From Candidatus Cloacimonadales bacterium (lineage in GTDB: Bacteria > Cloacimonadota > Cloacimonadia > Cloacimonadales > JAFGVF01): a DNA stretch of 64,000 nt. A program made the position numbers and the translations under genes. The stretch spans positions 202,347-266,346 of the forward strand of contig OY782499.1 in NCBI GenBank assembly GCA_963677815.1. The letters are read 5' to 3'. The notes below the pieces were generated by a model. The model did not search any database. It was not told the DNA's origin and saw only the letters and a program-made list of their open reading frames with translations. Shown here one piece after another: positions 3,001 through 50,372 of this stretch (the stretch's first letter is position 1; every line of letters begins with the position of its first letter).

Positions 3001-3062
3001 TTGGATTGAGCAGACAAGGATTAATCAAAAAAATAAAAAGGTATAATTTAGACAGAGAATAA
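1..3062 (+). CDS. sigma-54-dependent transcriptional activator (TPR array + GAF-like + AAA+ + Fis-type HTH); 5' end cut by window edge
   Basis: The frame stays open back to base 3 (LAHIDLNNYEKAVDYFREYL is itself TPR-like), so the TTG at 60 in the ORF track is probably not the start. About 500 aa of TPR-like repeats (recurrent YNNLG...Y..A) are followed by the sigma54-interaction core: Walker A GPSGTGKE, ESELFGH, GSFTGA (GAFTGA-loop variant) and Walker B FFLDEI. A C-terminal HTH reads QTQAAKAIGLSRQGLIKKI. Confidence 0.9.
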   Translation, partial: LAHIDLNNYEKAVDYFREYLHLCSKHSNPEAEIIFYLASALFNSNSSNFALEIIKQYSPENIDVLWKIKILLLKSDILMEGEDFDEAGQIIDQVISIAFQIEDKKIQSNILGDTKKLSGKLYYFKNDYDKAADLFMDAETYYKKAENFIGLAAVYNNIGVLYQFKGEYDNSEEMYKKSMELEKNRYNLKGISVCYNNLGGLMDDKGNRLESIYYLKEALQIQTLLNDPYQITNIYNNLGVTYMDEKNYKNSEDAFRKSLEIAINFNFFRVLIPTYNNLGTLFNSKGDWDKAIEYYQKAIDKCLEYDDFDGLIISYSNLGEIYEKRGEFNIAYDLYFKGLELLPKVNDENIKADLYGNIGSVLTNLHKFKEAYSYLVESLDFFKSVDAKHKIVEGYQKQAMYFVMTHNYESAAYYLNQALAIAEELNLTNELGKSYYLKAILERDDAESAKEYILKSIELFLSNSKQYELAQANYLLATILAEAQDWEQALEILNNNRKSIKKFGAIKLLEKNDILIANITKEHKAELEGSRNQVELTNKFYEITKDLGTITNFDTLLEESSNKLVEFSEADSAIVCLYNNQAIKDSWQYLKLINIEKSDKYFDVIMDIAKQSYSSSQKIDHKQPSIAPIYNHIVAFPLSLRNKSQGVIILMTKHGTHYFPEKSINMISALCNQIIVLIENIRTSDLEKTHAQIRGELIESNPFNIIGKSKKMMEIFDLINRIKDTPTTVLVEGPSGTGKELIARAIHYSSIRRNKQFIAQYCGALPETLLESELFGHVKGSFTGAAYDKKGLLELADGGTFFLDEIADISLSTQAKLLRFLQEGEVKRVGSTKTEKVNVRVVCATNVSLIDKVKTGEFRLDLYYRLNVIRIQVPALTERRDDIPLLAVHFLDKYNKHINKKVSGITDEAMTILKNYEWPGNVRQLENEIERAVTLADNNAFIKADDVSPELIHFTANKTTINLLSKPQSLKDAVEELEIQMITQALEETEWNQTQAAKAIGLSRQGLIKKIKRYNLDRE

Positions 3063-3069
3063 GGATGGT

Positions 3070-6950: not shown

Positions 6951-7091
6951 GCTGTGAAAGGGGATTAATACTCTCCCCGGTCTACACGACCACCCCTCTC
7001 AAACGCTCTTTCGAGCTGAAAGGGGATTAATACTCTCCCCGGTCTACACGACCACCCCTCTCAAACGCTCTTTCGAGCTGAAAGGGGATTT
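6951..7091 (+). repeat. 62-bp tandem repeat, ~2.2 copies (family 2)
   Basis: The unit is GCTGAAAGGGGATTAATACTCTCCCCGGTCTACACGACCACCCCTCTCAAACGCTCTTTCGA. GGGATT recurs at 6961, 7023 and 7085, giving a 62-bp period. Confidence 0.95.
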
Positions 7092-7157
7092 ACATGGGTC
7101 GAGGGATTCTAGCCCACGGTTACGCAGATGGCGGAGAAAATCTCCACCGTCCGACAG
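7074..7157 (+). repeat. mosaic repeat modules shared (inverted) with 20477-20709
   Basis: GAGCTGAAAGGGGATTTACATGGGTCGAGGGATTCTAGCCCACGG matches the reverse complement of 20477-20520. GGCGGAGAAAATCTCCACCGTCCGACA (7130-7156) matches the reverse complement of 20683-20709, with a compensatory G:C to T:A stem change. Confidence 0.85.
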
Positions 7158-7200: not shown

Positions 7201-7656
7201 CTACTCATATTTTTCTAGTCTAGCAGTAATCTTATTCACATGCCCTATTTCCTGTAATCTCAAATCTTCGAACACTTTAAGAGCAAAGTCATCTAAAGCA
7301 GTAAAAGTCTTAAACATTTCATAAGCTTTAGCAGTGTTCTTTTCTCGATTTAATGCAATTTTTAAAACATCAACAGGGGAATAAGAATTTTTTATTTCAT
7401 CAGTATTAATTAACATTTCAAGTAACGCTTTTTCAATATTGATAGTTTTCTCTAGTTCTTGTCTGCTAAGTTTTCCCTCTTCTAGCAACTCTCTTAACCT
7501 GTTATAATGACCAGTTTCTTCTTCAGCTAATTGACTTAATATCTCTTTAACTTGAGAATCTTGAACTATTTCAGTAGCCTTCTTATAAAAAGAAAAACTT
7601 TCTAATTCTATTTTTTCTGCATATTCGATAATTTCTCTTAAATTTAATTCTCTCAT
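7201..7656 (-). CDS. ferritin-like / rubrerythrin-family diiron protein (no rubredoxin domain)
   Basis: 151 aa and predicted all-helical. Two E-x-x-H metal motifs (EEETGH and LQEIGH) are each preceded by a helix with a conserved Glu, as in rubrerythrin-like four-helix bundles. Confidence 0.7.
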   Translation of the reverse strand: MRELNLREIIEYAEKIELESFSFYKKATEIVQDSQVKEILSQLAEEETGHYNRLRELLEEGKLSRQELEKTINIEKALLEMLINTDEIKNSYSPVDVLKIALNREKNTAKAYEMFKTFTALDDFALKVFEDLRLQEIGHVNKITARLEKYE

Positions 7657-7684: not shown

Positions 7685-7719
7685 GGAACACCCCCTATCT
7701 TCCCCCTCTCGGAGGGGGA
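7685..7719 (+). repeat. family-3 G5/C5 hairpin element (GGAACACCCCCTATCTTCCCCCTCtcgGAGGGGGA)
   Basis: One of four copies; the others are at 24158-24194 and 24273-24309 (inverted) and 41242-41278. Confidence 0.9.
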
Positions 7720-7736
7720 AATAGGACATCAAAATC

Positions 7737-7886
7737 ATTACGAGCTGAAAGGGGATTGTTTACTCTCCCCGGTCTTCTCGACCACCCCTCTCAAACGCTC
7801 TTACGAGCTGAAAGGGGATTGTTTACTCTCCCCGGTCTTCTCGACCACCCCTCTCAAACGCTCTTACGAGCTGAAAGGGGATTTAG
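7737..7886 (+). repeat. 63-bp tandem repeat, ~2.3 copies (family 2, ~90% identical to the 6951 array, same orientation)
   Basis: The unit is GCTGAAAGGGGATTGTTTACTCTCCCCGGTCTTCTCGACCACCCCTCTCAAACGCTCTTACGA, starting at 7744, 7807 and 7870. The array ends about 5 nt before the stop codon at 7891 of the NuoI-GltD gene. Confidence 0.95.
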
Positions 7887-20464: not shown

Positions 20465-20720
20465 CTCAACCAATTACCGCGGGCTGGAATCACGACCCCA
20501 CATTAATCCCCTTTCAGTTCATCAAAACGCACCAAAACTAACTGGGAACGCGGGATTCCAGCCCGCACCACGTACTTCTGTACGTGGATATTCTTGAGAA
20601 GTCCAGCACTAACGTGCTGGACGCGGGCAAGATGCCCGCGTTCCCAGTTAGAGGGGTGGTCGAGTAGACCGGGGAGAGTATTTGTCGGACGGTTGAGATT
20701 TTCTCAGCCAAAACCCTTTT
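20461..20720. repeat. mosaic of repeat modules (families 2 and 5, REP, REPIN A) filling the metK / M23 convergent intergenic region
   Basis: It contains an inverted partial family-2 unit (GAGGGGTGGTCGAGTAGACCGGGGAGAGTA, 20651-20680), REPIN A, a degenerate REP (20479-20500) and the family-5 hairpin. Confidence 0.85.
20540..20649 (+). repeat. 110-bp REPIN-like composite element, copy A
   Basis: It has the same 110-bp architecture and near-identical sequence. It lies between the convergent metK and M23 peptidase genes. Confidence 0.95.
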
Positions 20721-24157: not shown

Positions 24158-24309
24158 ATCCCCTTTTGTGAGGGGGAAGGCAGGGGGTGATTCCTTTCAA
24201 TAACTGGGAACGCGGGCATCCCTGCCCGCCTATGGACCCTCAGATGGATGCAAGATGTATCCACTCCATCATATCCCCCTATGAGAGGGGGAAAACAGGG
24301 GGTGTTTCC
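24158..24309 (-). repeat. two family-3 G5/C5 hairpin elements flanking a REP
   Basis: ATCCCCTTTTGTGAGGGGGAAGGCAGGGGGTGATTCC (24158-24194) and ATCCCCCTATGAGAGGGGGAAAACAGGGGGTGTTTCC (24273-24309). Confidence 0.9.
24202..24229 (+). repeat. single REP (AACTGGGAACGCGGGCATCCCTGCCCGC)
   Basis: Matches the REP consensus and lies between the acyltransferase gene and ispF. Confidence 0.9.
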
Positions 24310-29979: not shown

Positions 29980-30151
29980 AACTGGGAGAGCTGGCATCCC
30001 TGCCGGCTTCTTAACTGGGAAGGCGGGATTCCAGCCCGCCTCCAGCACTAAAAGTGCTGGAATTATTAAGATTACCCAGCACTTAATGCTGGGTGCGGGC
30101 TGGAATCCCGCTTTCCCAGTTAGTGCGGGTAAGATACCCGCCTTCCCAGTT
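29980..30151. repeat. REP cluster (2 forward REPs, 2 internal hairpins, 2 reverse REPs) between P1 and P2
   Basis: Sequence runs AACTGGGAGAGCTGGCATCCCTGCCGGC, AACTGGGAAGGCGGGATTCCAGCCCGC, CCAGCACtaaaaGTGCTGG, CCCAGCACttaaTGCTGGG, GCGGGCTGGAATCCCGCTTTCCCAGTT, GCGGGTAAGATACCCGCCTTCCCAGTT. Confidence 0.95.
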
Positions 30152-30154
30152 ACT

Positions 30155-36568: not shown

Positions 36569-36694
36569 TATCTTTTTTTTAGATTTTACTTTTTTTCTCA
36601 ATTTTGCCACAATTACTGAATTATCATTAGTTAAAGATGAAATGCAAATATGTGGATATGACTTGCATTTTAACATGTAACTCGGGATTGCTCT

Positions 36695-36974
36695 AACTGG
36701 GAACGCGGGATTCCAGCCCGCTAACTGGGAACGCGGGATTCCAGCCCGCTAACTGGGAACGCGGGATTCCAGCCCGCTAACTGGGAACGCGGGATTCCAG
36801 CCCGCTAACTGGGAACGCGGGATTCCAGCCCGCTAACTGGGAACGCGGGATTCCAGCCCGCTAACTGGGAACGCGGGATTCCAGCCCGCTAACTGGGAAC
36901 GCGGGATTCCAGCCCGCTAACTGGGAACGCGGGATTCCAGCCCGCTAACTGGGAACGCGGGATTCCAGCCCGCA
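36695..36974 (+). repeat. perfect head-to-tail tandem array of a 28-bp REP unit (AACTGGGAACGCGGGATTCCAGCCCGCT), 10 units, no spacers
   Basis: Units start at 36695, 36723, 36751, 36779, 36807, 36835, 36863, 36891, 36919 and 36947. Nine are identical 28-mers, and the tenth runs into the REPIN at 36947. Confidence 0.98.
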
Positions 36975-37056
36975 CCACGTACTTCTGTACGTGGTTATTC
37001 TTGAGAAGTCCAGCACTAACGTGCTGGACGCGGGCAGGATGCCCGCATTCCCAGTT
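36947..37056 (+). repeat. 110-bp REPIN-like composite element, copy B
   Basis: Structure is AACTGGGAACGCGGGattccagCCCGC, then hairpin CCACGTACttctGTACGTGG, a spacer, hairpin CCAGCACtaacGTGCTGG, then GCGGGCaggatGCCCGCATTCCCAGTT. The termini are inverted REPs. Confidence 0.95.
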
Positions 37057-37078
37057 AGGAGGATGCCTATTCCCCCAG

Positions 37079-37639
37079 TTATCTTTCTCTTTTCTTACCA
37101 TTATTCTTAATATAATTAATTACTTTAAAGTAGTGGTCCTCATTTCTTATATAGCGATCAAAATAATCATCCATCCAAAATTTACCTTTTCGCTTTAGCA
37201 ATTGATTTGCTTTCTTTGCAGTAAAGGATTTCCAACTTTGAATTATTTCGTGGAGATGTTGACTTTCATAAGGTCCAATCAAAACATGCACATGATTTGG
37301 CATAATTATCATTTCAATTAAGTCATATCTTACTTTATCAAAATATTTAAGAGCATTTTCAACAATTTCATACACTTTCGGATTTTTTAGATAGCATTGA
37401 CCATATCCATTATCTTCATATCTATGTAGAAATTGTTGTAATCTTTCATATTCACAGCTATTTTTATCTATTGATTTTTTCATAATAGCTAATTCACTTT
37501 TTTTGTATTCAATTACCTGTTGCGGAATAGAATCATGTAATCTAAATGTTATGAATTGATACACTTTATCATTATCATAGTGAGGAATACCACTTCTCTT
37601 ATAATAACCTTTTAGTTCTTCTTCAAATAAGAAACACAC
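37079..37639 (-). CDS. REP-associated tyrosine transposase (RAYT; IS200/IS605-type Y1 HUH transposase family)
   Basis: 186 aa with HUH motif PNHVHVLIG and the C-terminal Tyr motif FWMDDYFDRYIRNEDHYFKVINYIKNNG. RBS is AGGAGG. No IS ends or tnpB are present; the gene is flanked on both sides by REP arrays. Confidence 0.8.
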   Translation of the reverse strand: MCFLFEEELKGYYKRSGIPHYDNDKVYQFITFRLHDSIPQQVIEYKKSELAIMKKSIDKNSCEYERLQQFLHRYEDNGYGQCYLKNPKVYEIVENALKYFDKVRYDLIEMIIMPNHVHVLIGPYESQHLHEIIQSWKSFTAKKANQLLKRKGKFWMDDYFDRYIRNEDHYFKVINYIKNNGKKRER

Positions 37640-37735
37640 ATTAACCTCCTACCTTGTTATTTTATCTAAGTAAAAATATATGTAAATAGTTATAATCCTG
37701 TCAACTGTAATTCTTTTTGGATTTTAGCTGGAAAT

Positions 37736-37933
37736 AACTGGGAACACGGGCATCTTGCTCGTTAACTGGGAACGCGGGATTCCAGCCCGCACCACGTACT
37801 TCTGTACGTGGTTATTCTTGAGAAGTCTAGCACTAACGTGCTGGACGCGGGCAAGATGCCCGCATTCCCAGTTATTTCGGGCAAGATGCCCGCATTCCCA
37901 GTTAAGCGGGCTGGAATCCCGCGTTCCCAGTTA
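37736..37933. repeat. REP cluster 5' of RAYT
   Basis: It contains a forward variant REP (AACTGGGAACACGGGCATCTTGCTCGT), REPIN C, then two REPs ending ..GCCCGCATTCCCAGTT and ..CCCGCGTTCCCAGTT in reverse orientation. Confidence 0.9.
37764..37873 (+). repeat. 110-bp REPIN-like composite element, copy C
   Basis: Near-identical to copy B and in the same orientation, on the other side of the RAYT gene. Confidence 0.95.
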
Positions 37934-37960
37934 AAAAAAAGCCCCGCGTTAGCGAGGCTT
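37933..37960 (-). terminator. terminator of P5
   Basis: On the minus strand: AAGCCTCGC-taac-GCGGGGCTT (one mismatch) followed by TTTTTTTT. Confidence 0.75.
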
Positions 37961-37986
37961 TTATTAGTTTATTTTCTAAGTATTAA

Positions 37987-40050
37987 TTACTTAATTTTTA
38001 CAATCTTGAAGTTCTTAGTTTGTGTAGGAGAAGTCATTCTTACAAAGTAGATACCATTAGCAACTTTCTTGTTGTTAAGGTCTCTGCCGTTGAATTCAAA
38101 GTTATGTTCACCAGCATTAAATGATTCTCTTCTTACAACTTGACCTAAAAGGTTGTAGATAGTTACAGTTGCAGTTTCGCCTTCTTTAACTCTTACAGTT
38201 GTAGAAGTAGATTCTGTGAAAGGTGAAGGACCGAAGTTACGGAAAGTAGTTTCTGTGATACCAGGAACTACAGGTTCATCTTCAACTGTTACAACGATAG
38301 GACCATGGAAAGAGTTTTCGTTACCTAATTCAGCAACTTCTAACCAGTAGTAGTAAGTTGTAGATTCAACTTCGCTATCTGTATAAGTGTAAGTTTGTGT
38401 TTGAGTTTGGTTAGCAGGAGCAACCATTGTAGGGTTGATTCTGATAGCTTGATCTTGGTTATCAGTTTCTGCTCTATATACATTATAACCTTGTAAGTTA
38501 CTTTCTGATTCAGTTACCCATTTTAATGTAACATATTCATTAGCATGTGCTTGAGCTGTGAATGATGAAAGTTCTACAGGAAGGCTAGGCTCTGTGATAA
38601 TAATATCAACAGGATCTTTAGCACCATCATAATTGATAGTAACAGTTACAACGCCACCAGGGAAAGCTGCATCATATTGATATACACCATCAATATATAG
38701 AGCACCCTGTAAGATGTTTGTTACAAATGTAAATACATATGTACCATTTACAGTTGGATTAACAGTTGCACCAAAGTTGAATGCACCAGCAAGTGGGAAA
38801 TTCTCGGAGAAATTTCCTGGTTCAGCAAATGGTGCTGGGACTGGAGGAGTAAATCCTGCAGGTGTTCCACCAGTAAATGTAACCTGTACTTGTACTTCTA
38901 CATTGTTAGGATTGTTATCGCCAGGAACTACCACAGGTGCTTCATCTTCATAGACAGCAGTAGTAGTGAAAGTACTAGTGTTCATTGTACCTTCGTTTGG
39001 ATATCTCTTAGGAGTAATTCTTTGAGCTTTTGAAGATTTCTTTCCAGCAGGAACGATATAAGGTTTTACACCCCATGTATATTCTGTGTTATAATCTAAC
39101 TCATAATCAAGAGTATATGTCATAACAGCTACATCTGCAACCATGTTCATATCTTCTCCAACAACACCAATATATAATTCATAACCAGTAGCAGCAGGAC
39201 CATCATAAGTCCATGTGAATTCTGGCATAAGAGCTACATCAGTTGCTTCATTTTCAGGAGTAGCATTAGTTGCCCAAGTTGGGTAAACTATTGGAGCTGC
39301 TTCAGTTGTAAATGACCATACAGGTGCATCACCTTCAGGATAAGTTTTGTCGCCACCTGGCATGTCATCCCATACAAATGGTTCAATTTTCCATTCATAT
39401 TCAGTTGAGTAAGCTAAATTAGGAACTTCAATTGAAAGTTCATTCCAATCACTTGCAGGGTTCATCCAATCAACAGCACCAACTGTACGATAATAGAAAT
39501 CATATAAGTCTGGTGTTGAACCTTCTGGATTTGCCCAGGTTAAAGTAACTGTAGTAGCTACACCAGTTGCATCATCTAATGGTGAAACAACAGTACACCA
39601 TTCTGGAGCTACGGGACCTGCAGGTCCGCCCCATGCGATTACGTCTGCATGAGTATGTTGGTCAGCACCTAATTTTGCTACATCTACAGGACCATATTCG
39701 TTACCATCTGCATCTATAAACCAAAATCTAGCGAGTGTACCAAAAACACCCCAGTTTGATAAAGGAGACATCTGAATATTCAATTTACCATCAATTTCAG
39801 AGTAAACAGTATTGTTTGTATTCTGATCCGCTTCTTCAGGCCAGTTCCAGTAAAGAACAGGGTTAGGAGCCCACATTTCTCCACCAAAACCTGCATTATA
39901 TTGGCAAGCTTTGAAACCAATAGTACCATTAGCGTGAAAATCTCCACCCTCTGTTGTAGTGTTAAAAATCAATAGATAAGGTGGTGCAATTTGAGCTAAT
40001 AATCCAAATACACTCAGTAATAATAAAGATACAATTAATAATTTTTTCAT
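37987..40050 (-). CDS. secreted Fn3-repeat protein P5 with T9SS type-A C-terminal sorting domain
   Basis: Signal peptide is MKKLLIVSLLLLSVFGLLAQ. There are three Fn3-like modules (..EYEWKIEPF, ..EYTWGVKPY). An LPVELSSFTA...YYYWLEV module is followed by the CTD ..TVTIYNLLGQVVRR...NGIYFVRMTS...KIVKIK. Confidence 0.85.
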   Translation of the reverse strand: MKKLLIVSLLLLSVFGLLAQIAPPYLLIFNTTTEGGDFHANGTIGFKACQYNAGFGGEMWAPNPVLYWNWPEEADQNTNNTVYSEIDGKLNIQMSPLSNWGVFGTLARFWFIDADGNEYGPVDVAKLGADQHTHADVIAWGGPAGPVAPEWCTVVSPLDDATGVATTVTLTWANPEGSTPDLYDFYYRTVGAVDWMNPASDWNELSIEVPNLAYSTEYEWKIEPFVWDDMPGGDKTYPEGDAPVWSFTTEAAPIVYPTWATNATPENEATDVALMPEFTWTYDGPAATGYELYIGVVGEDMNMVADVAVMTYTLDYELDYNTEYTWGVKPYIVPAGKKSSKAQRITPKRYPNEGTMNTSTFTTTAVYEDEAPVVVPGDNNPNNVEVQVQVTFTGGTPAGFTPPVPAPFAEPGNFSENFPLAGAFNFGATVNPTVNGTYVFTFVTNILQGALYIDGVYQYDAAFPGGVVTVTINYDGAKDPVDIIITEPSLPVELSSFTAQAHANEYVTLKWVTESESNLQGYNVYRAETDNQDQAIRINPTMVAPANQTQTQTYTYTDSEVESTTYYYWLEVAELGNENSFHGPIVVTVEDEPVVPGITETTFRNFGPSPFTESTSTTVRVKEGETATVTIYNLLGQVVRRESFNAGEHNFEFNGRDLNNKKVANGIYFVRMTSPTQTKNFKIVKIK

Positions 40051-40784: not shown

Positions 40785-40906
40785 ATATTTTTTTCCTTTT
40801 TAAGTTTTTTTCTCTTATCAAAGTATTTTTTAATGCCTTTGTAAAGGGGATTGAGGATAAAGGGAAATTATTCTTAACAATGCTAGCAGATGATTTTTTT
40901 TGTTAT

Positions 40907-41234
40907 AACTGGGATGGCGGATGACTACATCCGCCTTTGGCTTTTCTCAAAGCCAAAGTATAGCAGGGTAATTTTTTTAAACTACCTTGCTAATATTTAT
41001 CTTTTTCTTGAGAAAAAGATGCGGATGTGGACATCCGCATTCCCAGTTATTTAAGAGAAGAGCGGGCTGGAATCCCGCATTCCCAGTTAAGAAGCCTTTG
41101 CGGATGTGGACATCCGCATTCCCACTTATTTAAGAGAAGAGCGGGCTGGAATCCCGCATTCCCAGTTATTGAGTGGACATCCGCATTCCCACTTATTTAA
41201 GAGAAGAGCGGGCTGGAATCCCGCATTCCCAGTT
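40907..41234. repeat. REP cluster with three tandem REP doublets
   Basis: The doublet GCGGATGTGGACATCCGCATTCCCA(G/C)TT-ATTTAAGAGAAGA-GCGGGCTGGAATCCCGCATTCCCAGTT occurs at 41021-41089 and 41100-41168, with a truncated copy at 41173-41234. A forward REP at 40907 and three unrelated hairpins (40929-41018) are also present. Confidence 0.95.
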
Positions 41235-41241
41235 ATTGAGT

Positions 41242-41278
41242 GGAAACACCCCCTATTTTCCCCCTCAAAGAGGGGGAT
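41242..41278 (+). repeat. family-3 G5/C5 hairpin element
   Basis: Sequence is GGAAACACCCCCTATTTTCCCCCTCaaagAGGGGGAT. Confidence 0.9.
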
Positions 41279-41312
41279 TTTGTAAGGATCAACAACTTGT
41301 GTTTCAGGGGGA

Positions 41313-41606
41313 TTAGTCTAATGTCCTGTAGTATTCACGCATAAAATGAATCCAATTATTATTTGTTGTGCCTTCTGCAATTCTTCTCTGGTTTAATTCT
41401 TCTTTTTCCTGGGGAGTTAAGGCTTTATATGCCTTACTCAACATAGTTTTGATTTCGCCAAAGTGTTGATTATTTTCCACAAGCCTTGGATTTGATTTTT
41501 TTCTTAAACGATATTTAGCTTCCTTCTTATATTTTACCAGAGTTAAACCATTTTTCTTTACCTTTGTTTTAAAACCCCAAGGTATTTTTAATCCGATTTT
41601 AATCAT
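41313..41606 (-). CDS. small basic hypothetical protein (97 aa)
   Basis: A strong RBS (AGGAGG, 4-nt spacing) precedes the ATG. The N-terminal half is Lys/Arg-rich. I recognise no family. Confidence 0.55.
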   Translation of the reverse strand: MIKIGLKIPWGFKTKVKKNGLTLVKYKKEAKYRLRKKSNPRLVENNQHFGEIKTMLSKAYKALTPQEKEELNQRRIAEGTTNNNWIHFMREYYRTLD

Positions 41607-41728
41607 GTGACCTCCTATTAATAATTATTTTGTTGTTACACTAACTTATGGGGTCCGTTTTTTGGAAAATGGTGCGTTTTTACTGAAAATAATTGATTTG
41701 ATTCTAGTATTTTGGAGTTCATACTTGG

Positions 41729-41786
41729 CTTAATTGTTAGTATCTCAATAGTTCATTGGAATTTTCTAGAGAGAGTAACAATCAAG
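41729..41786 (-). repeat. 58-bp long-stem hairpin element (family 4), copy C (left arm degenerate)
   Basis: Sequence is CTTAATTGTTAGTATCTC-N22-GAGAGAGTAACAATCAAG. The loop is the reverse complement of the copy A loop (shared TTCCAATGA). Confidence 0.85.
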
Positions 41787-41819
41787 CTACAGGGAGGATG
41801 GATGACTACTTCTGCTTAT

Positions 41820-42001
41820 AACTGGGAAGGGGGATTCCCAGTTATTTAAGAGAAGAGCGGGCTGGAATCCCGCATTCCCAGTTAGCATAGCAAAAGCCCC
41901 GCTTTCGCAGGGCTTTTTAATTTATTTGAGTGTGCCGGCAAGGATGCCGGCGCTCCCAGTTATTTAAGAGAAGAGCGGGCTGGAATCCCGCATTCCCAGT
42001 T
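41820..42001. repeat. REP cluster abutting the P4 stop codon
   Basis: It contains a collapsed palindrome AACTGGGAAGGGGGATTCCCAGTT and three reverse REPs, including the stem variant GCCGGCAAGGATGCCGGC. The last REP ends in ..CCCAGTT, and its final TT plus the next A form the P4 TAA stop on the minus strand. Confidence 0.95.
41893..41916 (-). terminator. probable terminator of P4 (after two REPs)
   Basis: GC hairpin AAAGCCCCGC-tttc-GCAGGGCTTT. The T-run is short on the minus strand (TTTTG) and longer on the plus strand. Confidence 0.5.
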
Positions 42002-45000
42002 ATTTAGCAGGAGTGAAGGCATCAGTAGATGCTTCAATCTTGAAGAATTTCATATTATCAGCTCCGTCATTAGTATATGAGTTAGTACCTACAGTTTGGA
42101 TTAATTCAAATCCACTATCAGGGTTCATAGAACCGTATACTTTATAGGAGTTAGCATTGGTAACTTCTTCCCAAGTAATTACGATACCTGTAGCTTCTTT
42201 AACAATAGAAGTAATTACAGGTGTAGCAAGTTCAGTCACACCACCACCAGCTATGATATCATCTGCATCACGTGGGTTAAGACCATATTGGTTATAAGAA
42301 TAATCCACGACACCTGTGATAGAAGTAAATGTGTCGTTTACTGAAGCTGCAGGAATAAGTTCAAAGATACCATTATCAATTTGAGCATCACCTGAGCCAT
42401 CAGTAACAAACCATTCATCATTACTATTAGCAGCGGTTGTAACAGTTAAGTTTTCAATCTTCACTAAAACACCTTCATAGGCTTCGTTAGAAGCTAAATC
42501 TGCAGTAGTAACTACAAGCGGTTCAGGAAGAGTGTTTCCTTGAGAGACAACTTGGAAGTCTGTTACAGTCTTTAGTTCAGTCCAACCATAGTATTCATCT
42601 ACAGTAGCACGGAATGAAACAATGTCACCTAGACTAGGGCTGTTTGTAGAATCATAAACATAAATACCATTCCAAGCACCACCTTGAGGAGCCGAGATAA
42701 AGTATCTTGAACCTGCATAATTAGTAGCAGTTACGATACCTTCTACAAGAACATCTTGTCCGTCATAAGGAGAAGGATAAGTTCCATCGCCAGCTTCAGT
42801 AGTATATTGAATATCATAGATAGGTGTAGGAAGAACTTCATTAGCAATACCTGTTAAGTCAATAATTACATCATCGAAACCATCAGCAGAATGAGTAATC
42901 TGACCATAAACAGTTCCAGCATTAGTAGCATTGAATTTAACGTTGATAGTAACTTCTTCTTCTTGTAATTCGAAGAAGAAATCAGAACCCCAAGCACCAT
43001 CTGGGTCTTGGATTTGGAAATCGCCAGTTACTTCTACAAGTCCTAAATCAACGCCTTGCATATAAAGGACGTAAGATTGACTAGCAGATTCTACACCAAC
43101 TTCTGTTTCAAAGGTCATAGCAGTTTTTGATATGTTAAGACCGTCTTCATAACCAGTCACTTCTTGGATTTCAGAAGCGAAGCGAGAAGTTAGTTGAGAT
43201 GTACCTTGATATTCAATAGCCAGACCAGTCACATTAAGGTTATTAGCAGAAATGTCTGAACCAATATAATCAGCTTCAGAGAAATTAGTTCTGAAGACAA
43301 GGTTATTAGTTCCATCTGTTAAGGTGTAGTTTTGGCCAGAAGCGAAAGTACCAGTTTCAACAAATGTAACACCTTGGACTGTTACCACTTGTGATTCATA
43401 AGCGTTGAAGTTAGTATTTAAGTCTGCAATAGTAACTACAATAGGAGTAACAGTATTTCCTGTTGAAGTAGCAGGGTCGCTATTTACAGAAGGTACAAAT
43501 TGAAGAGTTCCGTTATATTCAGTAAGAGAACCTTCAAGATTAGTGATACCATCATAGAGGTTATAAGTAGTAGTTATAACTCCAGAGTTATCATCAATTA
43601 GAATACCTGCAGTAGCATCTTGGATATATTTTTGATTACGAGAAGTTCTTTGGTAAGTTAAGATAGCTTCCCCAGTTAATCTATAGATAGTACCATCAGT
43701 GAGCCCTGCTCTTAAGTCAGCAATAGTAGCAACTTCAGTAACAGCTGAGAAAGTGAAGTCTGCAGAAACTACAGGACTATTTAGATAACCTTCTTTCATA
43801 GCAATAGCTTGGATAGTAGCATCAGCACTTAAGCTAAATGGAGCTGAATAAAGTGTTGAAGCATCAGTAGGTGTATCACCATTAGTAGTGTAATAGATTG
43901 AGGCACCAGCAGTTTCACAGGTAAGTGTAACATCTATTGGATTTTCGAAATTTCCACCATTAGGAGAGATTACAGGACTAGCAACTACTTCCATTGGTTC
44001 AGTGTGAGAACCAAGATATGAGAAGGTATCACTTGGATAAACAATCCACTGTGAATCTTCAGGAGAAGTTCCAGCAGAAGCTGTCCAATCAGTAGTACCC
44101 TGAGTAACAGTCATCTTTCTAACAAGAGTATGGTTAGCAGTAGCTCCAGTATCTCCAGCTACTTCCCAAGTAGAACCAGGGTCAACAGTTGGAGTACCAA
44201 AGACATCAATAAGGATACCATTATAGAAGAGACCAACTGCATCATCACCATTAAAATAAGTAACGTTACTTGTTTCATCTGCTATGGCAAGAATTGAAGC
44301 ATCGGCTGAAGCATTAGCTATAACATAAACATCACCGGATGCAAGTGTACCTTGCATATCAGAAGTATTACCCCAGTCACCACCATTAGAAGCTAATCTT
44401 ACAGTATAAGGAGTTAAATCAACATCCGCTCCAGTACCATTATAGATTTCAACAGCTTTATTATTAGAAGAACCTTCAATATATTCAGAAATAATCATAC
44501 CTGTAGGGACAATAATCTCTTCGATAGTGATTACAGATTCAGCAATAGAGCTATCAAGCCAGTCAGTTTTAACAGCCATAGCTTTAACAGTAGTAGTAGC
44601 ATCAACAGTGAAAGGTGTAGTATATTCACTTGATCCAGTAGTTGGGTCATTACCATCTATAGTATAATAGATAGTTGCACCATCGGTTGCACAAGTGATA
44701 GTAACTTCTTGGCTTTCATAGTAAGTTCCTGTTGCTGGAGCGATTTCAGGAGTAGCAACTGTTGAAGGACCAGCTAATTCTGTAAAATCAGCAAGGTTTC
44801 TAGCAACAATTTGAGGACTTCCATTATATTCAGCAACATAAGCGACCACATCTAAACCACTAGTAAAGATAGCCTGTCCAATATAATCAGCTTCAGAGAA
44901 AGAAGTTCTGAAGGTTAAGTTATCAGTACCATCAGTGAGTGTATAGTTTGTATTTGCTGCAAAAGTACCTGCTGAAGAGAAGTTTACACTTTCTAGTTTA

Positions 45001-48000
45001 ACTAATCTTGATTCATAAGTATCAATTGCAGAAGTAATATCAGTAATTGATACTACTAAAGGAGTGACAGTATTTCCTGTTGAAGTAGCAGAACCTGGGT
45101 CTGCAGTTGGAACAAATTGAAGGATTCCATTATATTCATTAAGAGTACCTTCAATATTTGTAATACCGTCATATTGATTATAAGTTGTTGTGATAAGACC
45201 AGAGTTATCATCGATTAAGATACCAGCAGTGGCATCTTGGATATATTTTTGATTACGAGAATCTCTTTGATAAGTTAAGATAGCTTGACCAGTTAATCTA
45301 TAAATAGTACCATCAGTAGCACCAGCTCTTAAGCTTGCGATATCAGCAACCTCAGTAGCAGTAATTGAAGTGATGGTATATTCAGCAGTAGCAATAGCTG
45401 AATCATCATAATCAACTAAAGTAGCAAAGGCTTTCACAGTAGTATCTTCGGTGATAGTTAAATCACTAGAATATACAAGTGAGCCTGTAGTTGGATCACT
45501 ACCATCTAAGGTATAATAGATAGTAGCACCATCAGTTGCACAAGTAATAGTAACTACAACTTGGTCATTATAAGAACCAGCAGCAGGGGTAAATTCAGGA
45601 GTTGCAACTGTAGGAGTTGGTTCGACTCCATAGCTTCCTAGATAAGCAAATGTATCTTGTGGGTAGATATTCCATTGAGAAGAAGCTTCATCTGTACCAG
45701 CTGAAAGAGCCCAGTCAGTAGTTCCTTCAGTAACTGTTAACTTTCTAACAAGAGTATAATCTGCAGTAGTACCAGCACCACCAGCTACATCCCAAGATGA
45801 ACCTGGATCAGAACCGAAAACACCAATCATATCAATTGCGATATCATTATAACATAGAGCTACGGTATCATCACCGTTAAAGTTACAAACACCACTTGTT
45901 GCATCTGCAAGAGCGAGAACAGCTGCCTCAGCACCAGAGTTTGCAATAACGAAAACTGCTTCAGCTGCTAGTGTACCATTGAAATCGTAAGTAGTACCCC
46001 AATCTCCACCATTGAAAGCAGTTTTTATAGTATAAGGTGTTAAATCGACTTCAGCACCAGTTCCGTTATAAATTTCGATAACTTTGTTGCTACCAGAACC
46101 TTCTATATATTCAGAAATAATCATACCAACTGGCATTTCATTTAGATCAACAATAGTATAATCAGCACTTGCAATAGCAGAATCATCATAATCAACTAAG
46201 CTAGCAAAAGCTTTGACTGTTGCATCAGCAGTTAAAGTAAATGGAGCTGAATAAACGTCAGAAGCTGTTGTTGGGTCATTTCCATCTATAGTATAATAGA
46301 TAGTAGCACCTTCTGTAGCACAAGTGATAGTAACTTCAACTTGGTTATCATAGCTACCAGCTACAGGACTTATTTCAGGTGTTGCAACTATTTGAGCTGG
46401 ATCAACACCATGACTTCCTAAATAGGTAAAGGTATCTTGAGGATAAACATTCCATTGCGAAGAAGTTTCATCTGTACCAGCTGAAACAGCCCAGTCAGTT
46501 GTACCTTGAGTAACTTCAACTTTTCTTACAAGAGTGTAATTTACAGTTGTACCAACTCCACCAGCTACATCCCATGAAGAACCTGGGTCCACTCCAGGAA
46601 CACCAATTACATCAATAAGAGTAGTATTGTAGAAGAGACCAATTGCATCATCACCGTTGAAGTAACAAACATTACTTGTAGCATCTGTTACGGCAAGAAT
46701 AGCTGCAACTGAACCTGAGTTTGAGATAACAAAGACATCCCCAGCAGTAAGTGTACCAGTCATATCATAATTATTACCCCAATCTCCACCATTAGAGCCT
46801 AGTTTAACACTATAAGGTGTTAAATCAACATCTGCACCTGTACCATTGTAGATTTCAATTGTTTTATTATTTGAACCACCTTCAATGTATTCAGAGATAA
46901 TCATACCTGTTGGTATATCACCTGCTTCTGGACTTACTGTATAAGAAGCTTCTTGGCTGGTAGATGTTGCATTATCATCATCAGTTGCTTCAATTACATA
47001 ATATACAGTAGTTTCTGCTAATTGAGCTGGAATATCAGCTGTATAAGAAGCACGGGCAGGAGTCATTGCAGTAGTTGTAGTATAGACGCCTGTTTCAGTT
47101 CCCCATTTTAAATTGATAGTAGCAATAGTGCCATCATTATCAACTGCATTAGCTGTAACTGTTACAGCATCAGTAGGATAAATTGTAAGAGGAGCATGAG
47201 TTACATCTGATATTACAGGAAGTTGGTTAGCAGTTACATCAAGAATAACATCATCTGCATCTCTTGGGCTAATACCAAATGAACCATATTTGTAGTCAAC
47301 AATACCTGTAATTGAAGAATAAACCTGTCCAACACTTGGAGCTGGGTCTGGAATATAGCCATATTCATCATCAATTTGAGCATTTCCAGAACCATCTGTT
47401 ACATACCATTCATTATAGGTAGAAGGTTCTTGAGTAACTGATACATTTTCAACAGTAACTAATACGCCTTCATAAGCTTCTGTAGATGCCTGAGCAGTAG
47501 TAATTACAGCAGGAGTTACAGAGTTTCCTTGTGAAAGAGTTTGGAAACCATTGATATTACTTAGTTCTGTTAAAGTATTATATTCAACAACTTGTCCATT
47601 AAAAGTAACTTCATCACCTATTGTAGGATTAGCTGTGTTGTTATAAACAAGGATTCCATTCCAAGCGCCACCTGCAGGAGCAGAGATATTGAAACCTGAA
47701 CTATTAACTGCAGTTACGATACCTGTAACATTAACAGTCTGTCCTTGATAAGCAGAAGCGTCTGAAGTTGTAGGATCAGCTACATACTGGATATCATAAA
47801 TTGAAACAGTAGGAATGATATTGATAACATAAGACTCTGAAGCCATTTGAGAATCATTCCAGCCTGCTTTAACAGCAATAGCCTTGATTGTCATATCAGC
47901 AGCAACTTCGATAGCTCCACTATAAAGAGTAGAAGCAGAAGTTGGAGTATCTCCGTTAGTAGTATAATAGATGTCTGCATCTGCAGTAGTTGTTGCTAAA

Positions 48001-50372
48001 GTAACATTTTGAACTGCATCAAAGGTTCCACCAGCTGGATTCATAGTAGGAGTAGCACAAGTAAATACAGGTTCTCCACCATAAATTGCATTAACCCATT
48101 CAGGATAATCTACGAATGGATTTCTGTTACCTTGATAATCTTCAATTTCATTATTACGAGTTATTTCAGCAGCATCAACAGGATCTTGACCATGCCATTC
48201 TAAAAGAATAGGAAGCATATTTACATTGATTGGTCCATTATTAGGAACAGGAGGGGCAAGAGGAAGGTCATAACGTACATTCATATAAAGTAATGCACGA
48301 GCTAAATCACCCTTGTGTTGATCTGTTGGTTCAAAGACAGTAACAAATTCATCATTATCACCACGATATGAAACATATCCAGTTGCATAAGAATATGAAT
48401 ATTCAACTGAATTTACAACATCAAATGATAAATTACCACGTGAAGAGTTTACACCTGAATCAGTTGGGAAAAGATGATGTACATCAGCTTTAGCTCTTAA
48501 TTCTTCATTTTGAGTATCATAATCTTCAATCCAGCTTTGAGCATAAGAGTGTTCACAATTAATGTCAGTTGGTGCAGAAGTATCACCATAAGAATGAGAA
48601 ACTTCTAAACCAGTATAAACACATGTTACTGTGTTATTTATATTATCTATATTGCTATACATGGCAGCACGAGCACCATCATAGCTTGTATTTGTGTTTG
48701 TTGAAATAAGTGTTTTTAATTGACTCTTTAAAGCAGCACCTTCTGTAGCAGTAATACCACTATAGTAAGAAGAACCACCTGAAGTAGTTACAGTAATATA
48801 AGCTGACTTATATTCTGTTCCATCACTTGTTCCTGAATCCATAACATAAAGTTTCACAGGATAAGTACCTACAGCGTAATAAGTGAAGCTTGGATTAGCA
48901 GCATCTGAATCTTCATTATTATCACCATCGAAATCCCAGCTATATAAATAAGGACTTGTCCCACCAGTAACTAAATTAGTAAAGTTAACTGTAAGAGGAA
49001 CTTGACCAGTAAGCACATCAGCTTCGAAATCAACAGTTAGAATTTCAGGAGAAGTTCCACCAGCACCCATAACTGAGAAATCATCATAATATATTACTCC
49101 GCCACCTGAGTTATCATTATAAGTTCTAACTTCAAAATAAAAGTTATCTGCAGTAGCAGGAGCAGTAAGAGTATGAGAAACTTGTTGCCAATCTGCACTG
49201 TCTGTTGAATATCCACTTGGTCTTAATTCTAAAGCATTATCAGATAATGTGCTTGTACCTTCACGCCAATAAGAATAAATTCTTCCTTTTGCATTAGCAT
49301 CATTATCTAAGAACCAATAAGAGATAGTATAAGTTTCTCCACCAACAATACCTTCAACATATTGACCTAAGTCTTTGGTGCCTGCAGTTTGCTTAGCAGA
49401 ATAAGAACCAGAATGAACAATAGTTGCTTCTTGCTCAATACTTTCTTTCTTATCCCAACCTGTTGGGCTTGTAGCAGTATCCCAAGCTTCAAGACTTCCA
49501 TTAGTCATTAATTCATCACCACTTCCACTTGTTTCTTCAGTAACAGTGATGTAATTAATTTTTTCTTCAATATCTGTGCCTAAAACTGCATCAGTAACTG
49601 TTAATTTTACAGAATAAGTTCCTGCTGAAGTATAATCATAAGCAGGATTTTCTTCAGTGGAATCAACACTTCCGTTGTTATCAAAATCCCATGCATAACC
49701 ATAAGGTGAAGTACCACCAGTTACTGCAGGAGTGAAGTTAACAGTGAGAGGGGCAAGACCGGTTACATAATCAGCTGAGAAATCAGCTGAGAGAGCTGTA
49801 GGGGTTGTGCCACCAGAATAATCTGTTACAGAAAAATCATCTATACTCAAATGAGCATTTTGGGCATCACTTAGAACTCTAATATAGATTTCGGTAGCAG
49901 AATCATTGATGTCATAAGAATAATCTACATAATTTTGATTAGCACTGGCCCCTAAAGTATGAGTATCTAAATCTATGAAATTTTCATTATCATAAGATTT
50001 TTGTAAAACAAATACATTAGTATCAGAACCATTAATATAAGCATATTTGAAACTAACTGTTTCAATTGTGTTAAGAGCAGGTGTAGTTATATGAGCTCCG
50101 GCAGAATCATCATTAATAACAAAGCCATAAGACCCTGCAATTGTATTTCCATAAGAGAAATTACCAGCTTGAACTTTTGTCCAAACTCTTCCGCTTATAG
50201 TAACAGAAGCATCTCCATAAGAAGTACTTGGATTGCTTTCAAAATCTTCAGTCCATGTATCAGCCATCAGCGAACCGATGCTTAACATCATCATTAGTAC
50301 GATAAAAATATTCAGATATCTTTTCACATATCCTCCAAATTTTTTGGTTTGTGTTAAATAATTTTCTTCCAT
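42000..50372 (-). CDS. giant secreted nuclease P4: endonuclease I domain + 3 lamin-tail domains + PKD, CBM-like, OB-like and Fn3-associated repeats; class-B C-terminal domain
   Basis: Endonuclease-I motifs lie at aa ~535-765 (NCEHSYAQSW, ADVHHLFPTDSGVNSSRGN, HKGDLARALLYM, QGNRNPFVDYPEW). Three LTD-like modules are present (GMIISEYIEG..NK.IEIYNGTGA.VDL..Y......NGGDWG...FNGDD). Two PKD modules are present (PLTVNFT...GGTSPY.Y.WDFD). The true start may be GTG at 50327 (GGAGGA 4 nt upstream, then KRYLNIFIVLMMMLSIGSLMA) rather than ATG 50372, which has no RBS. Confidence 0.85.
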   Translation of the reverse strand: MEENYLTQTKKFGGYVKRYLNIFIVLMMMLSIGSLMADTWTEDFESNPSTSYGDASVTISGRVWTKVQAGNFSYGNTIAGSYGFVINDDSAGAHITTPALNTIETVSFKYAYINGSDTNVFVLQKSYDNENFIDLDTHTLGASANQNYVDYSYDINDSATEIYIRVLSDAQNAHLSIDDFSVTDYSGGTTPTALSADFSADYVTGLAPLTVNFTPAVTGGTSPYGYAWDFDNNGSVDSTEENPAYDYTSAGTYSVKLTVTDAVLGTDIEEKINYITVTEETSGSGDELMTNGSLEAWDTATSPTGWDKKESIEQEATIVHSGSYSAKQTAGTKDLGQYVEGIVGGETYTISYWFLDNDANAKGRIYSYWREGTSTLSDNALELRPSGYSTDSADWQQVSHTLTAPATADNFYFEVRTYNDNSGGGVIYYDDFSVMGAGGTSPEILTVDFEADVLTGQVPLTVNFTNLVTGGTSPYLYSWDFDGDNNEDSDAANPSFTYYAVGTYPVKLYVMDSGTSDGTEYKSAYITVTTSGGSSYYSGITATEGAALKSQLKTLISTNTNTSYDGARAAMYSNIDNINNTVTCVYTGLEVSHSYGDTSAPTDINCEHSYAQSWIEDYDTQNEELRAKADVHHLFPTDSGVNSSRGNLSFDVVNSVEYSYSYATGYVSYRGDNDEFVTVFEPTDQHKGDLARALLYMNVRYDLPLAPPVPNNGPINVNMLPILLEWHGQDPVDAAEITRNNEIEDYQGNRNPFVDYPEWVNAIYGGEPVFTCATPTMNPAGGTFDAVQNVTLATTTADADIYYTTNGDTPTSASTLYSGAIEVAADMTIKAIAVKAGWNDSQMASESYVINIIPTVSIYDIQYVADPTTSDASAYQGQTVNVTGIVTAVNSSGFNISAPAGGAWNGILVYNNTANPTIGDEVTFNGQVVEYNTLTELSNINGFQTLSQGNSVTPAVITTAQASTEAYEGVLVTVENVSVTQEPSTYNEWYVTDGSGNAQIDDEYGYIPDPAPSVGQVYSSITGIVDYKYGSFGISPRDADDVILDVTANQLPVISDVTHAPLTIYPTDAVTVTANAVDNDGTIATINLKWGTETGVYTTTTAMTPARASYTADIPAQLAETTVYYVIEATDDDNATSTSQEASYTVSPEAGDIPTGMIISEYIEGGSNNKTIEIYNGTGADVDLTPYSVKLGSNGGDWGNNYDMTGTLTAGDVFVISNSGSVAAILAVTDATSNVCYFNGDDAIGLFYNTTLIDVIGVPGVDPGSSWDVAGGVGTTVNYTLVRKVEVTQGTTDWAVSAGTDETSSQWNVYPQDTFTYLGSHGVDPAQIVATPEISPVAGSYDNQVEVTITCATEGATIYYTIDGNDPTTASDVYSAPFTLTADATVKAFASLVDYDDSAIASADYTIVDLNEMPVGMIISEYIEGSGSNKVIEIYNGTGAEVDLTPYTIKTAFNGGDWGTTYDFNGTLAAEAVFVIANSGAEAAVLALADATSGVCNFNGDDTVALCYNDIAIDMIGVFGSDPGSSWDVAGGAGTTADYTLVRKLTVTEGTTDWALSAGTDEASSQWNIYPQDTFAYLGSYGVEPTPTVATPEFTPAAGSYNDQVVVTITCATDGATIYYTLDGSDPTTGSLVYSSDLTITEDTTVKAFATLVDYDDSAIATAEYTITSITATEVADIASLRAGATDGTIYRLTGQAILTYQRDSRNQKYIQDATAGILIDDNSGLITTTYNQYDGITNIEGTLNEYNGILQFVPTADPGSATSTGNTVTPLVVSITDITSAIDTYESRLVKLESVNFSSAGTFAANTNYTLTDGTDNLTFRTSFSEADYIGQAIFTSGLDVVAYVAEYNGSPQIVARNLADFTELAGPSTVATPEIAPATGTYYESQEVTITCATDGATIYYTIDGNDPTTGSSEYTTPFTVDATTTVKAMAVKTDWLDSSIAESVITIEEIIVPTGMIISEYIEGSSNNKAVEIYNGTGADVDLTPYTVRLASNGGDWGNTSDMQGTLASGDVYVIANASADASILAIADETSNVTYFNGDDAVGLFYNGILIDVFGTPTVDPGSTWEVAGDTGATANHTLVRKMTVTQGTTDWTASAGTSPEDSQWIVYPSDTFSYLGSHTEPMEVVASPVISPNGGNFENPIDVTLTCETAGASIYYTTNGDTPTDASTLYSAPFSLSADATIQAIAMKEGYLNSPVVSADFTFSAVTEVATIADLRAGLTDGTIYRLTGEAILTYQRTSRNQKYIQDATAGILIDDNSGVITTTYNLYDGITNLEGSLTEYNGTLQFVPSVNSDPATSTGNTVTPIVVTIADLNTNFNAYESQVVTVQGVTFVETGTFASGQNYTLTDGTNNLVFRTNFSEADYIGSDISANNLNVTGLAIEYQGTSQLTSRFASEIQEVTGYEDGLNISKTAMTFETEVGVESASQSYVLYMQGVDLGLVEVTGDFQIQDPDGAWGSDFFFELQEEEVTINVKFNATNAGTVYGQITHSADGFDDVIIDLTGIANEVLPTPIYDIQYTTEAGDGTYPSPYDGQDVLVEGIVTATNYAGSRYFISAPQGGAWNGIYVYDSTNSPSLGDIVSFRATVDEYYGWTELKTVTDFQVVSQGNTLPEPLVVTTADLASNEAYEGVLVKIENLTVTTAANSNDEWFVTDGSGDAQIDNGIFELIPAASVNDTFTSITGVVDYSYNQYGLNPRDADDIIAGGGVTELATPVITSIVKEATGIVITWEEVTNANSYKVYGSMNPDSGFELIQTVGTNSYTNDGADNMKFFKIEASTDAFTPAK

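Follow-up and report, generated by a model that had tools for sequence, protein, structure and literature searches.

A 64,000-nucleotide stretch of DNA from a Candidatus Cloacimonadales bacterium (contig OY782499.1; hereafter the window) carries what is very probably a REPtron, a chromosomal, single-copy and vertically inherited gene for a REP-associated tyrosine transposase (RAYT) lying amid its cognate repetitive extragenic palindromic (REP) sequences; the term is used here in the sense of Ton-Hoang and Chandler. RAYTs are Y1 HUH nucleases/ligases of single-stranded DNA and kin to the TnpA transposases of the IS200/IS605 insertion sequences (IS). The kind of system is known and the lineage is new: the locus extends REP/RAYT systems to an AT-rich, uncultured phylum (the host genome has 35% GC). 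The locus bears on the question of how REPs spread, as their turnover is visible at strain level. Coordinates of the features are collected in Table 1.

The RAYT open reading frame (ORF) starts with GTG, 5 nt past an AGGAGG ribosome-binding site (RBS, 37645-37650), with a sigma-70-like promoter-like site, TTGACA-18-TATATT, at 37675-37704, and its stop codon, TAA, belongs to a degenerate REP, TAACTGGGGGAATAGG. The protein scores 39.6 bits against the Pfam family Y1_Tnp (PF01797, cut-off 23), and its best NCBIfam match is REP_Tyr_transpos, followed by transpos_IS200 at 29 bits. In an alignment of 41 homologues, residues H116, H118, W155, D161, R162, R165, Y176 and N180 are invariant and the HUH context PNH116-V-H118VL is without variation. 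A profile made from these homologues matches ISDra2 TnpA (E = 1.5e-4) and the Escherichia coli TnpA-REP structure 4er8 (E = 2e-3) in the Protein Data Bank (PDB). The alignment to 4er8 places H116 and H118 on H59 and H61 (an HMH motif), and Y176 and N180 on Y115 and N119 (in DYIYIN), these four residues of 4er8 being its active site (PMC3479197). The AlphaFold (AF2) model has a pLDDT of 83.9 with a helix predicted at residues 167-180; in a Foldseek search of the PDB all 30 of its 30 significant matches (E<1e-3) were IS200/IS605 TnpA proteins or 4er8, with the best query TM-score for 4er8. About 60 extra residues are modelled as helices ahead of the Pfam-matched core, which begins at around residue 97. 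The 90%-identity protein cluster of the RAYT has one member, on one contig. No tnpB is present among the neighbouring genes of the window, which are giants secreted by the type IX secretion system (T9SS) and housekeeping genes (metK, ispF, peptidase M23 and rubrerythrin). An earlier note, written from the letters of the window alone, had described the gene as a Y1 transposase with an HUH motif and a C-terminal tyrosine, had identified it as a RAYT unaccompanied by tnpB and had seen its stop codon supplied by a degenerate REP; on each of these points our results agree with it, and the protein family and active-site residues are established.

Each REP is built from a conserved 11-nt 5' tail (TAACTGGGAA+N), a GC stem of 5-8 bp and a loop of 3-7 nt. 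The tail is present in every REP unit, and the foot of the hairpin reads GGAAN. Some units stand singly, others are strung head to tail, and still others form inverted pairs whose folded state is a REPIN-like hairpin of 112 nt. They are in large excess over chance, the motif AACTGGGAAYGCGGG (at most 2 mismatches) being found at 33 sites in the window against 0.08 expected from shuffled sequences. They are also almost wholly intergenic: 34 of the 36 AACTGGGA sites lie between genes, one falls on the ORF 42000-50372 stop codon, and the remaining match, which lacks a hairpin, lies within a gene. REPs occupy 8 of the 20 intergenic gaps of the window and the body of no gene, and within 400 bp of the RAYT there are 14 on its 3' side and 5 on its 5' side.

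The 3' flank holds the most regular of these strings, an array in which Tandem Repeats Finder (TRF) detects a period of 28, 10.0 copies and 100% matches, with the unit CTAACTGGGAACGCGGGATTCCAGCCCG. In a unit-by-unit catalogue every unit is TAACTGGGAAC followed by GCGGG-ATTCCAG-CCCGC, with a gap of 0 between units; on the RAYT coding strand the hairpin comes first and the tail second. The tenth unit is at the same time the left REP of the first composite element described below, in keeping with the nine identical 28-mers and one junction copy reported earlier. On the 5' side, where the earlier note had placed REPs in the opposite orientation, this is true of the three minus-strand REPs at 37847-37933 and not of the two plus-strand REPs at 37735-37790. 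A CRISPR-like reading of the array was rejected because it has no spacers. In a metagenome scan the spacer-less junction CCCGCTAACTGGGAAYGCGGG gave 0 matches; TAACTGGGAAYGCGGG matched more than 120 contigs, nearly all once and of high GC, as chance could produce in a database of that great size, and this is uninformative.

Three copies of a 112-nt composite element are present in the window, two of them bracketing the RAYT as direct repeats. They are about 97% identical, with mismatches in four alignment columns over the element, and correspond to the direct elements of some 110 bp, with a third copy elsewhere, that had been noticed earlier. The first copy consists of an A-type REP, a hairpin ACCACGTAC-TTCT-GTACGTGGT, a spacer, a hairpin TCCAGCAC-TAAC-GTGCTGGA and an inverted B-type REP. 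The composites have terminal inverted repeats of 16-28 nt, the inverted REPs, and start and finish with TA/TAA. Folded as single-stranded DNA, each composite gives a single long hairpin that contains two inner ones (dG -45 to -48 kcal/mol, z -11 to -13), and the minimum free energy structures pair both terminal REPs. Because of the inverted REP ends and the one-hairpin fold with its two inner hairpins, the composites are in structure REPINs as defined by Bertels and Rainey. A search of the whole window against Rfam gave no family at the gathering score, and the composites correspond to no known RNA. A variant REPIN elsewhere in the window has two A-type REPs and differs in its inner hairpins.

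Further REPs extend this nest on either side. The last of the three head-to-tail REPs at 37847-37933 is the right end of the second composite, and TRF gives a period of 30, 3.0 copies and 84% matches over the string; the intrinsic terminator of the upstream T9SS gene forms the outer edge of the nest. Head-to-tail joints between unlike REP subtypes, with gaps of 0-3 nt, were found at five places in the window. The dispersed cluster beyond the terminator contains a perfect 67-bp x 2.1 duplication, and its last REP lies directly against the stop codon (TAA) of ORF 42000-50372. This ORF encodes 2790 residues, and at 41994-42002 its TAA is that of the REP, as for the RAYT. As both stop codons lie in REPs, REPs may insert at, or directly after, TAA.

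Table 1. Coordinates of the RAYT gene, its REPs and associated features in the window.
Feature	Position	Strand	Remarks
RAYT / TnpA-REP-like Y1 HUH gene, 186 aa	37079..37639	-	HUH is H116-V-H118; catalytic Tyr is Y176 in YIKNN
RAYT expression signals	37645..37704	-	kept in orthologous loci
Perfect head-to-tail array, ten 28-bp REP units, no spacers	36693..36973	+	TRF; 3' of RAYT stop
REPIN-like composite, copy 1	36946..37057	+	three-copy alignment; dG -45.3 kcal/mol, z -11.2
Degenerate REP TAACTGGGGGAATAGGCATCCTCC	37056..37081	-	its TAA is the RAYT stop; abuts next REP head-to-tail
Degenerate B-type REP	37735..37762	+	gap 0 to copy 2; head-to-tail, two REP subtypes joined
REPIN-like composite, copy 2	37763..37874	+	direct repeat of copy 1 beyond RAYT
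Three head-to-tail REPs, subtypes A, B', B	37847..37933	-	1- and 3-nt gaps
Intrinsic terminator of upstream T9SS gene (37987-40050)	37937..37962	-	kept in orthologous loci
Third 112-nt composite copy	20539..20650	+	17 kb away, between metK and peptidase M23 gene
Variant REPIN and one more head-to-tail REP	30012..30152	.	fold dG -51.4 kcal/mol, z -13.1
Dispersed REP cluster	40906..42002	.	C-type and A-type REPs alternate head-to-tail, constant 12-nt linker

Three related Cloacimonadales assemblies (loci L001, L204 and L205) carry a RAYT gene 82-85% identical to that of the window at the same syntenic site, and all three keep the upstream terminator, the promoter, the RBS and the stop codon within a REP. 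L001 lies on OY759729.1 (ctg38534c), named 'Candidatus Cloacimonadales bacterium', which bears out the Cloacimonadota-like lineage suggested earlier from the letters alone. Between orthologues dN/dS is 0.15-0.25 at dS 0.3-0.5. The RAYT is single-copy, vertically inherited and under purifying selection; such housekeeping-like behaviour (one copy, immobile, vertical descent) is a defining trait of RAYTs. The orthologue in L204 is called as a protein of 251 aa (3001-3756) since the ORF runs upstream through REPs; its conserved GTG/RBS start is at 3196, and the longer call is an annotation artefact caused by REPs. A 100-aa fragment, P0126 (ctg13228c), falls in the 90% cluster of the orthologous RAYT and may be what is left of a decayed copy, its genome retaining two paralogues.

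The array at the RAYT 3' flank is far less constant than the gene. It has 10.0 x 28 bp in the window (A-type REP, 100% matches), 7.0 x 29 bp in L204 and 6.0 x 29 bp in L205 (each an A-type REP plus one G, 100% matches), and 5.1 x 58 bp in L001 (94% matches), where the unit has a different hairpin and also ends in TTCCCAGTTA. All four arrays share their 3' position, past the first conserved REPs. From the arrays at this one site in the three related genomes it follows that the window array is real and that it turns over very fast. The closest pair shows how fast: the RAYT genes of L204 and L205 are 99.1% identical (dS 0.010), their arrays differ by one unit, and a 54-nt block of two unlike REP units, present upstream in L204 only, is bounded exactly at TAAC. 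Whole REP units, with exact boundaries, thus distinguish even strains whose RAYT genes are 99% identical.

Similar arrangements were found well beyond the Cloacimonadales. The survey covered 82 homologous loci among the matches listed (35-85% identity), from lineages that include Planctomycetota, Chloroflexota, Verrucomicrobiota, Acidobacteriota, Bacteroidales, Chlorobi and Proteobacteria. The up- and downstream flanks of the RAYT gene have repeats in common at 68 of the 75 testable loci, compared with 11 of 118 control pairs. Tandem arrays (period at least 20, at least 2 copies, at least 85% matches) lie no more than 600 bp from the homologue at 24 of the 82 loci, for example in Viridilinea (33 bp x 5.9) and in Ca. 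Foliamicus (29 bp x 2.6), and their density is 0.33/kb within that distance against 0.023/kb elsewhere, an approximately 15-fold difference. As arrays cluster beside the RAYT across the surveyed loci, head-to-tail arrays can be called recurrent in this RAYT clade.

Paralogous RAYT loci of Cloacimonadales have units of their own, unrelated to those of the window: 116 bp x 4.4 and 75 bp x 3.1 at the flanks of L003, and a 177-bp multi-hairpin tandem unit at L002 (the same as L004, on OY759729.1), with 1.9 copies upstream and 10.5 downstream in a single orientation (2595-2928 and 3636-5497, about 1.9 kb). The repeats of L002 and L003 were searched for in the window and are absent from it. The loci L206-L208 have flanking repeats and no long array. 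The genome of the window also has a second RAYT, P0013, which is 62% identical. Ten perfect copies are the extreme for short, REP-sized units in this sample, the sole equal in copy number being the 177-bp array of L002. The earlier view that a long, perfect head-to-tail array is unusual needs tempering: arrays beside a RAYT are not rare in the survey, and tandem arrays of REPs have been published for Pseudomonas (PMC3116915, PMC3733652).

The REPs of the distant homologues resemble those of the window in their tag. When the 12 nt on the 5' side of repeated GC hairpins in RAYT flanks were analysed with no prior motif, the top 6-mer was CTGGGA, which was present at 23 of 88 loci, compared with 6 in control regions. 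Two or more instances of C[CT]GGGA with a perfect hairpin no more than 5 nt further on lie near the gene at 26 of 88 loci, and far from the gene at 6 of 88. The stems co-vary, and the tag and a TCY loop persist; the REP of a Pyrinomonadaceae genome, for instance, is CCGGGAGCGCGGGCATCCCTGCCCGC, and the window unit at 24201 is CTGGGAACGCGGGCATCCCTGCCCGC. CYGGGA(R)C REPs with a 7-bp GC stem and a TCY loop flank RAYTs of distant phyla that are 40-47% identical (L008, L020, L025, L029, L032, L038, L039, L042, L048 and L068). The published REP super-families are tagged GTAG and CGTC (PMC3733652), and the REP literature searched, supplements included, makes no mention of a CYGGGA tag.

A mechanism for the origin of these patterns can be proposed by analogy with E. 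coli TnpA-REP, which recognises folded single-stranded REP via a 5' tetranucleotide and recombines REPs in vitro, its cleavage site being a CT dinucleotide on the 5' or 3' side of the REP (PMC8266576). The Cloacimonadales protein would bind the folded TAACTGGGAAN-hairpin on single-stranded DNA with the 5' tail as guide, would cut at or near the unit boundary C|TAAC, and would rejoin the ends through a 5'-phosphotyrosine link on Y176. In the 28- and 29-bp arrays alike the boundary is indeed a C|T step. New units would go preferentially beside existing REPs, near the RAYT gene; once like units abut, their number could shift by hairpin-promoted replication slippage, by RAYT strand transfer or by both, and the outcome would be perfect, lineage-specific arrays. 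We consider this two-step model, insertion by the RAYT and then slippage and/or strand transfer, to have about an even chance of being correct, and the binding, the cleavage site and the part of the RAYT in array formation are all inferred from the analogy. Slippage cannot make 0-3-nt joints between unlike REP subtypes, and these joints imply that units are added beside existing units.

Several observations weigh against the REPtron assignment or against a part for the RAYT in building the array. The score with the NCBIfam equivalog REP_Tyr_transpos (NF047646) is 57.3 bits, under its 80-bit cut-off, which indicates a divergent member of the clade, and a single-sequence phmmer search of the PDB gave weak ISDra2 matches (E = 0.12) and did not reach 4er8. 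The REPs are without the canonical GT[AG]G (or CGTC) tag at the foot of the hairpin. In the window their tails are confined to 7.2-42.0 kb, from -30 kb to +5 kb relative to the RAYT, the six intergenic gaps between 50 and 64 kb have none, and none were found in 8.5 kb around the RAYT paralogue of a related genome; this thinning away from the RAYT may be a decay with distance from the gene or an effect of small samples. Lastly, perfect arrays and differences of plus or minus one unit are also the outcome of plain slippage, and perfect two-copy duplications of other repeat families lie far from the RAYT.

These last points are what the strongest alternative is built on. In it the array is an ordinary variable number tandem repeat (VNTR), generated by slippage or unequal recombination between adjacent REP hairpins with the RAYT uninvolved, and it lies beside the RAYT only through the highest REP density being there. 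The complete identity inside the arrays and the one-unit difference between L204 and L205 would be explained, as would the perfect duplications of 2.1-2.3 copies seen with unrelated 62-67-bp units 4-30 kb from the RAYT. However, the head-to-tail joints of unlike subtypes and the indel of the 54-nt two-subtype block are beyond slippage, and different units, all ending in CCCAGTTA, have been amplified at the same site in different lineages. The 15-fold enrichment of arrays beside the RAYT across phyla also speaks against a bystander role, although it is confounded by REP density. On balance we regard an ordinary VNTR as a serious contender that falls somewhat short of an even chance.

It is highly improbable that the perfect array is an artefact of assembly, a repeat loop of arbitrary copy number: a perfect repeat of 281 bp is longer than short reads, but three independent assemblies from other samples have arrays at the same site, and the related assemblies are Mb-scale single contigs, two of them named circular, for which long reads are suggested (from the naming only). 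Nor is there much to recommend the 112-nt composites as miniature inverted-repeat transposable elements (MITEs) of an unrelated DDE transposase, for example a TA-targeting one of the IS630/mariner type, with the Y1 gene a bystander. Their terminal inverted repeats and TA/TAA ends would suit such elements, yet inverted pairs are a minority among the units, most of which are lone REPs or belong to head-to-tail strings, homologous Y1 genes are bracketed by repeats of their own at nearly all testable loci, and a CYGGGA-tagged hairpin accompanies the homologues in many phyla; we rate this as very unlikely. A still mobile, autonomous IS200/IS605-type insertion sequence would account for the Y1 fold and motifs and for hairpin units that flank the gene in direct orientation like left and right ends (LE/RE), but an active IS is ruled out for practical purposes by a single-copy gene without tnpB that is fixed under purifying selection (dN/dS about 0.2) at one chromosomal site in four genomes at dS up to 0.5, its flanks varying among them and the gene conserved.

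The locus can be compared with several known systems. Like the REPtron of E. coli K-12 (TnpA-REP/YafM with REPs and bacterial interspersed mosaic elements, BIMEs; 4ER8), the locus has a single-copy Y1 HUH gene bracketed by cognate hairpins, aligned HUH, Tyr and Asn active-site residues, and intergenic REPs made of a conserved 5' tail and a hairpin. The link in sequence is at profile level only (E = 2e-3), the Cloacimonadales protein has about 60 more residues in the modelled helices before its core, and the W-Q pair by which the E. coli enzyme contacts its guide (PMC6006769) is W-M. The REPs themselves differ in having the tail TAACTGGGAAN where E. coli has GTAG, short, perfect and bulge-free stems, and long spacer-less arrays of one orientation in place of alternating BIMEs. 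With the IS200/IS605 enzymes (IS608 and ISDra2 TnpA) the protein shares its fold, its best Foldseek and profile matches and, presumably, the recognition of single-stranded hairpins, with a guide 5' of the hairpin and flanking structures in direct orientation; unlike them it has no defined LE/RE, no tnpB, is not multicopy and keeps a fixed site in four genomes.

In Pseudomonas fluorescens SBW25 (Bertels and Rainey 2011), tandem REP arrays reach up to 12 units, and tandem REP/REPIN clusters, also next to RAYT genes, are known in Pseudomonas (PMC3116915); head-tail dimers and reiterated REPs have been described more widely (PMC3733652). In SBW25, as here, inverted REP pairs form one hairpin, REPIN clusters flank the RAYT and every RAYT is matched by a REP family of its own. 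Spacings in the Pseudomonas arrays are 72-112 bp and take in flanking DNA, whereas the repeated unit here is the bare 28-bp REP; the host phylum, the AT-rich genome and the RAYT clade, under the NCBIfam equivalog cut-off, differ as well. In the classification of Quentin et al. 2018, TnpA-Y1 subclass 2.4 (group 4 of Bertels) has the motifs NH[IFV]H and YIxNNP, a mean length of 194 aa and hosts in Cyanobacteria, Bacteroidetes and various phyla (PMC6006769). The NHVH and YIxNN(P) motifs of our RAYT resemble this subclass, and non-GTAG 'atypical' repeats are shared with subclasses 2.6 and 3 (PMC6006769). The W-motif is WM rather than WQ and the REP tag CYGGGARC rather than GT[AG]G, so that on signature motifs (NHVH / WM / YIxNN), the only features compared, the subclass is ambiguous. 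Neither Cloacimonadota nor the CYGGGARC tag is mentioned in that paper or its supplements (PMC6006769).

The differences from known systems are therefore the lineage, the non-GTAG tag, the W-M pair and the bare REP as unit of a spacer-less array. As to the lineage, which the earlier note had thought undescribed for RAYTs, our literature search found no paper linking RAYTs with Cloacimonadota, and to that extent the claim stands; relatives of the protein, the named ones being Cloacimonadota, already carry the automatic annotation 'RayT', which takes from its novelty. The locus is otherwise an expected member of a widespread family that pipelines label already. It is of moderate interest, and its main value is as a natural system for watching REP turnover between strains.

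A bolder reading combines two propositions, and we put it forward tentatively, as rather unlikely to hold as a whole. In the first, the arrays would be independent footprints of RAYT action in cis in four Cloacimonadales lineages, produced by unit-length cleavage at C|TAAC and then by strand transfer, or insertion beside a REP already in place. In the second, the CYGGGA(R)C hairpin would be a third REP superfamily, in addition to those tagged GTAG and CGTC, and tied to one RAYT clade of many bacterial lineages, among them Acidobacteriota, Verrucomicrobiota, Planctomycetota, Chloroflexota, Binatia, Lentisphaeria, Gammaproteobacteria and Cloacimonadota, with a REP sequence far better conserved than the RAYT protein. 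If the first is true, perfect arrays would have been built independently at the same RAYT flank in four lineages, and these loci would be a natural record of the mechanism by which REPs disseminate. It predicts that the RAYT cuts at the C|TAAC boundary, inserts units beside REPs already present and acts in cis, and the 28-nt unit would be a minimal substrate. The second points to a conserved non-GTAG tag common to several phyla.

Other repeats and genes of the window deserve mention. A second repeat family (GAGGGGTGGTCGnGnAGACCGGGGAGAG...ATCCCCTTTCAGCTCG) forms perfect tandem duplications of 62 bp x 2.2 (6955-7090) and 63 bp x 2.3 (7738-7883), in the same orientation on both sides of the rubrerythrin gene (7201-7656), and a partial copy abuts the third composite at 20651. 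Members of a third hairpin family (ACACCCCCT..CCCCCTC-nnn-GAGGGGGA) are found at 7686-7725 and 41245-41283 in the window and at 3602-3897 in L001; the window, like L204/L205, has it in single copy, and the unit amplified five times at the RAYT 3' flank of L001 is a hairpin of this family fused to the TTCCCAGTTA tail. The sequence GGCGGAGAnAATCTCCACCGTCCGAC has two copies in the window (7125-7155 and 20684-20705) and brackets paralogous RAYTs (P0020 and P0018) in other Cloacimonadales genomes, in the flanks of L206 and L208. Between two REP clusters, at 41313-41606 on the minus strand, lies a lysine-rich ORF of 97 aa with a strong RBS and no annotation.

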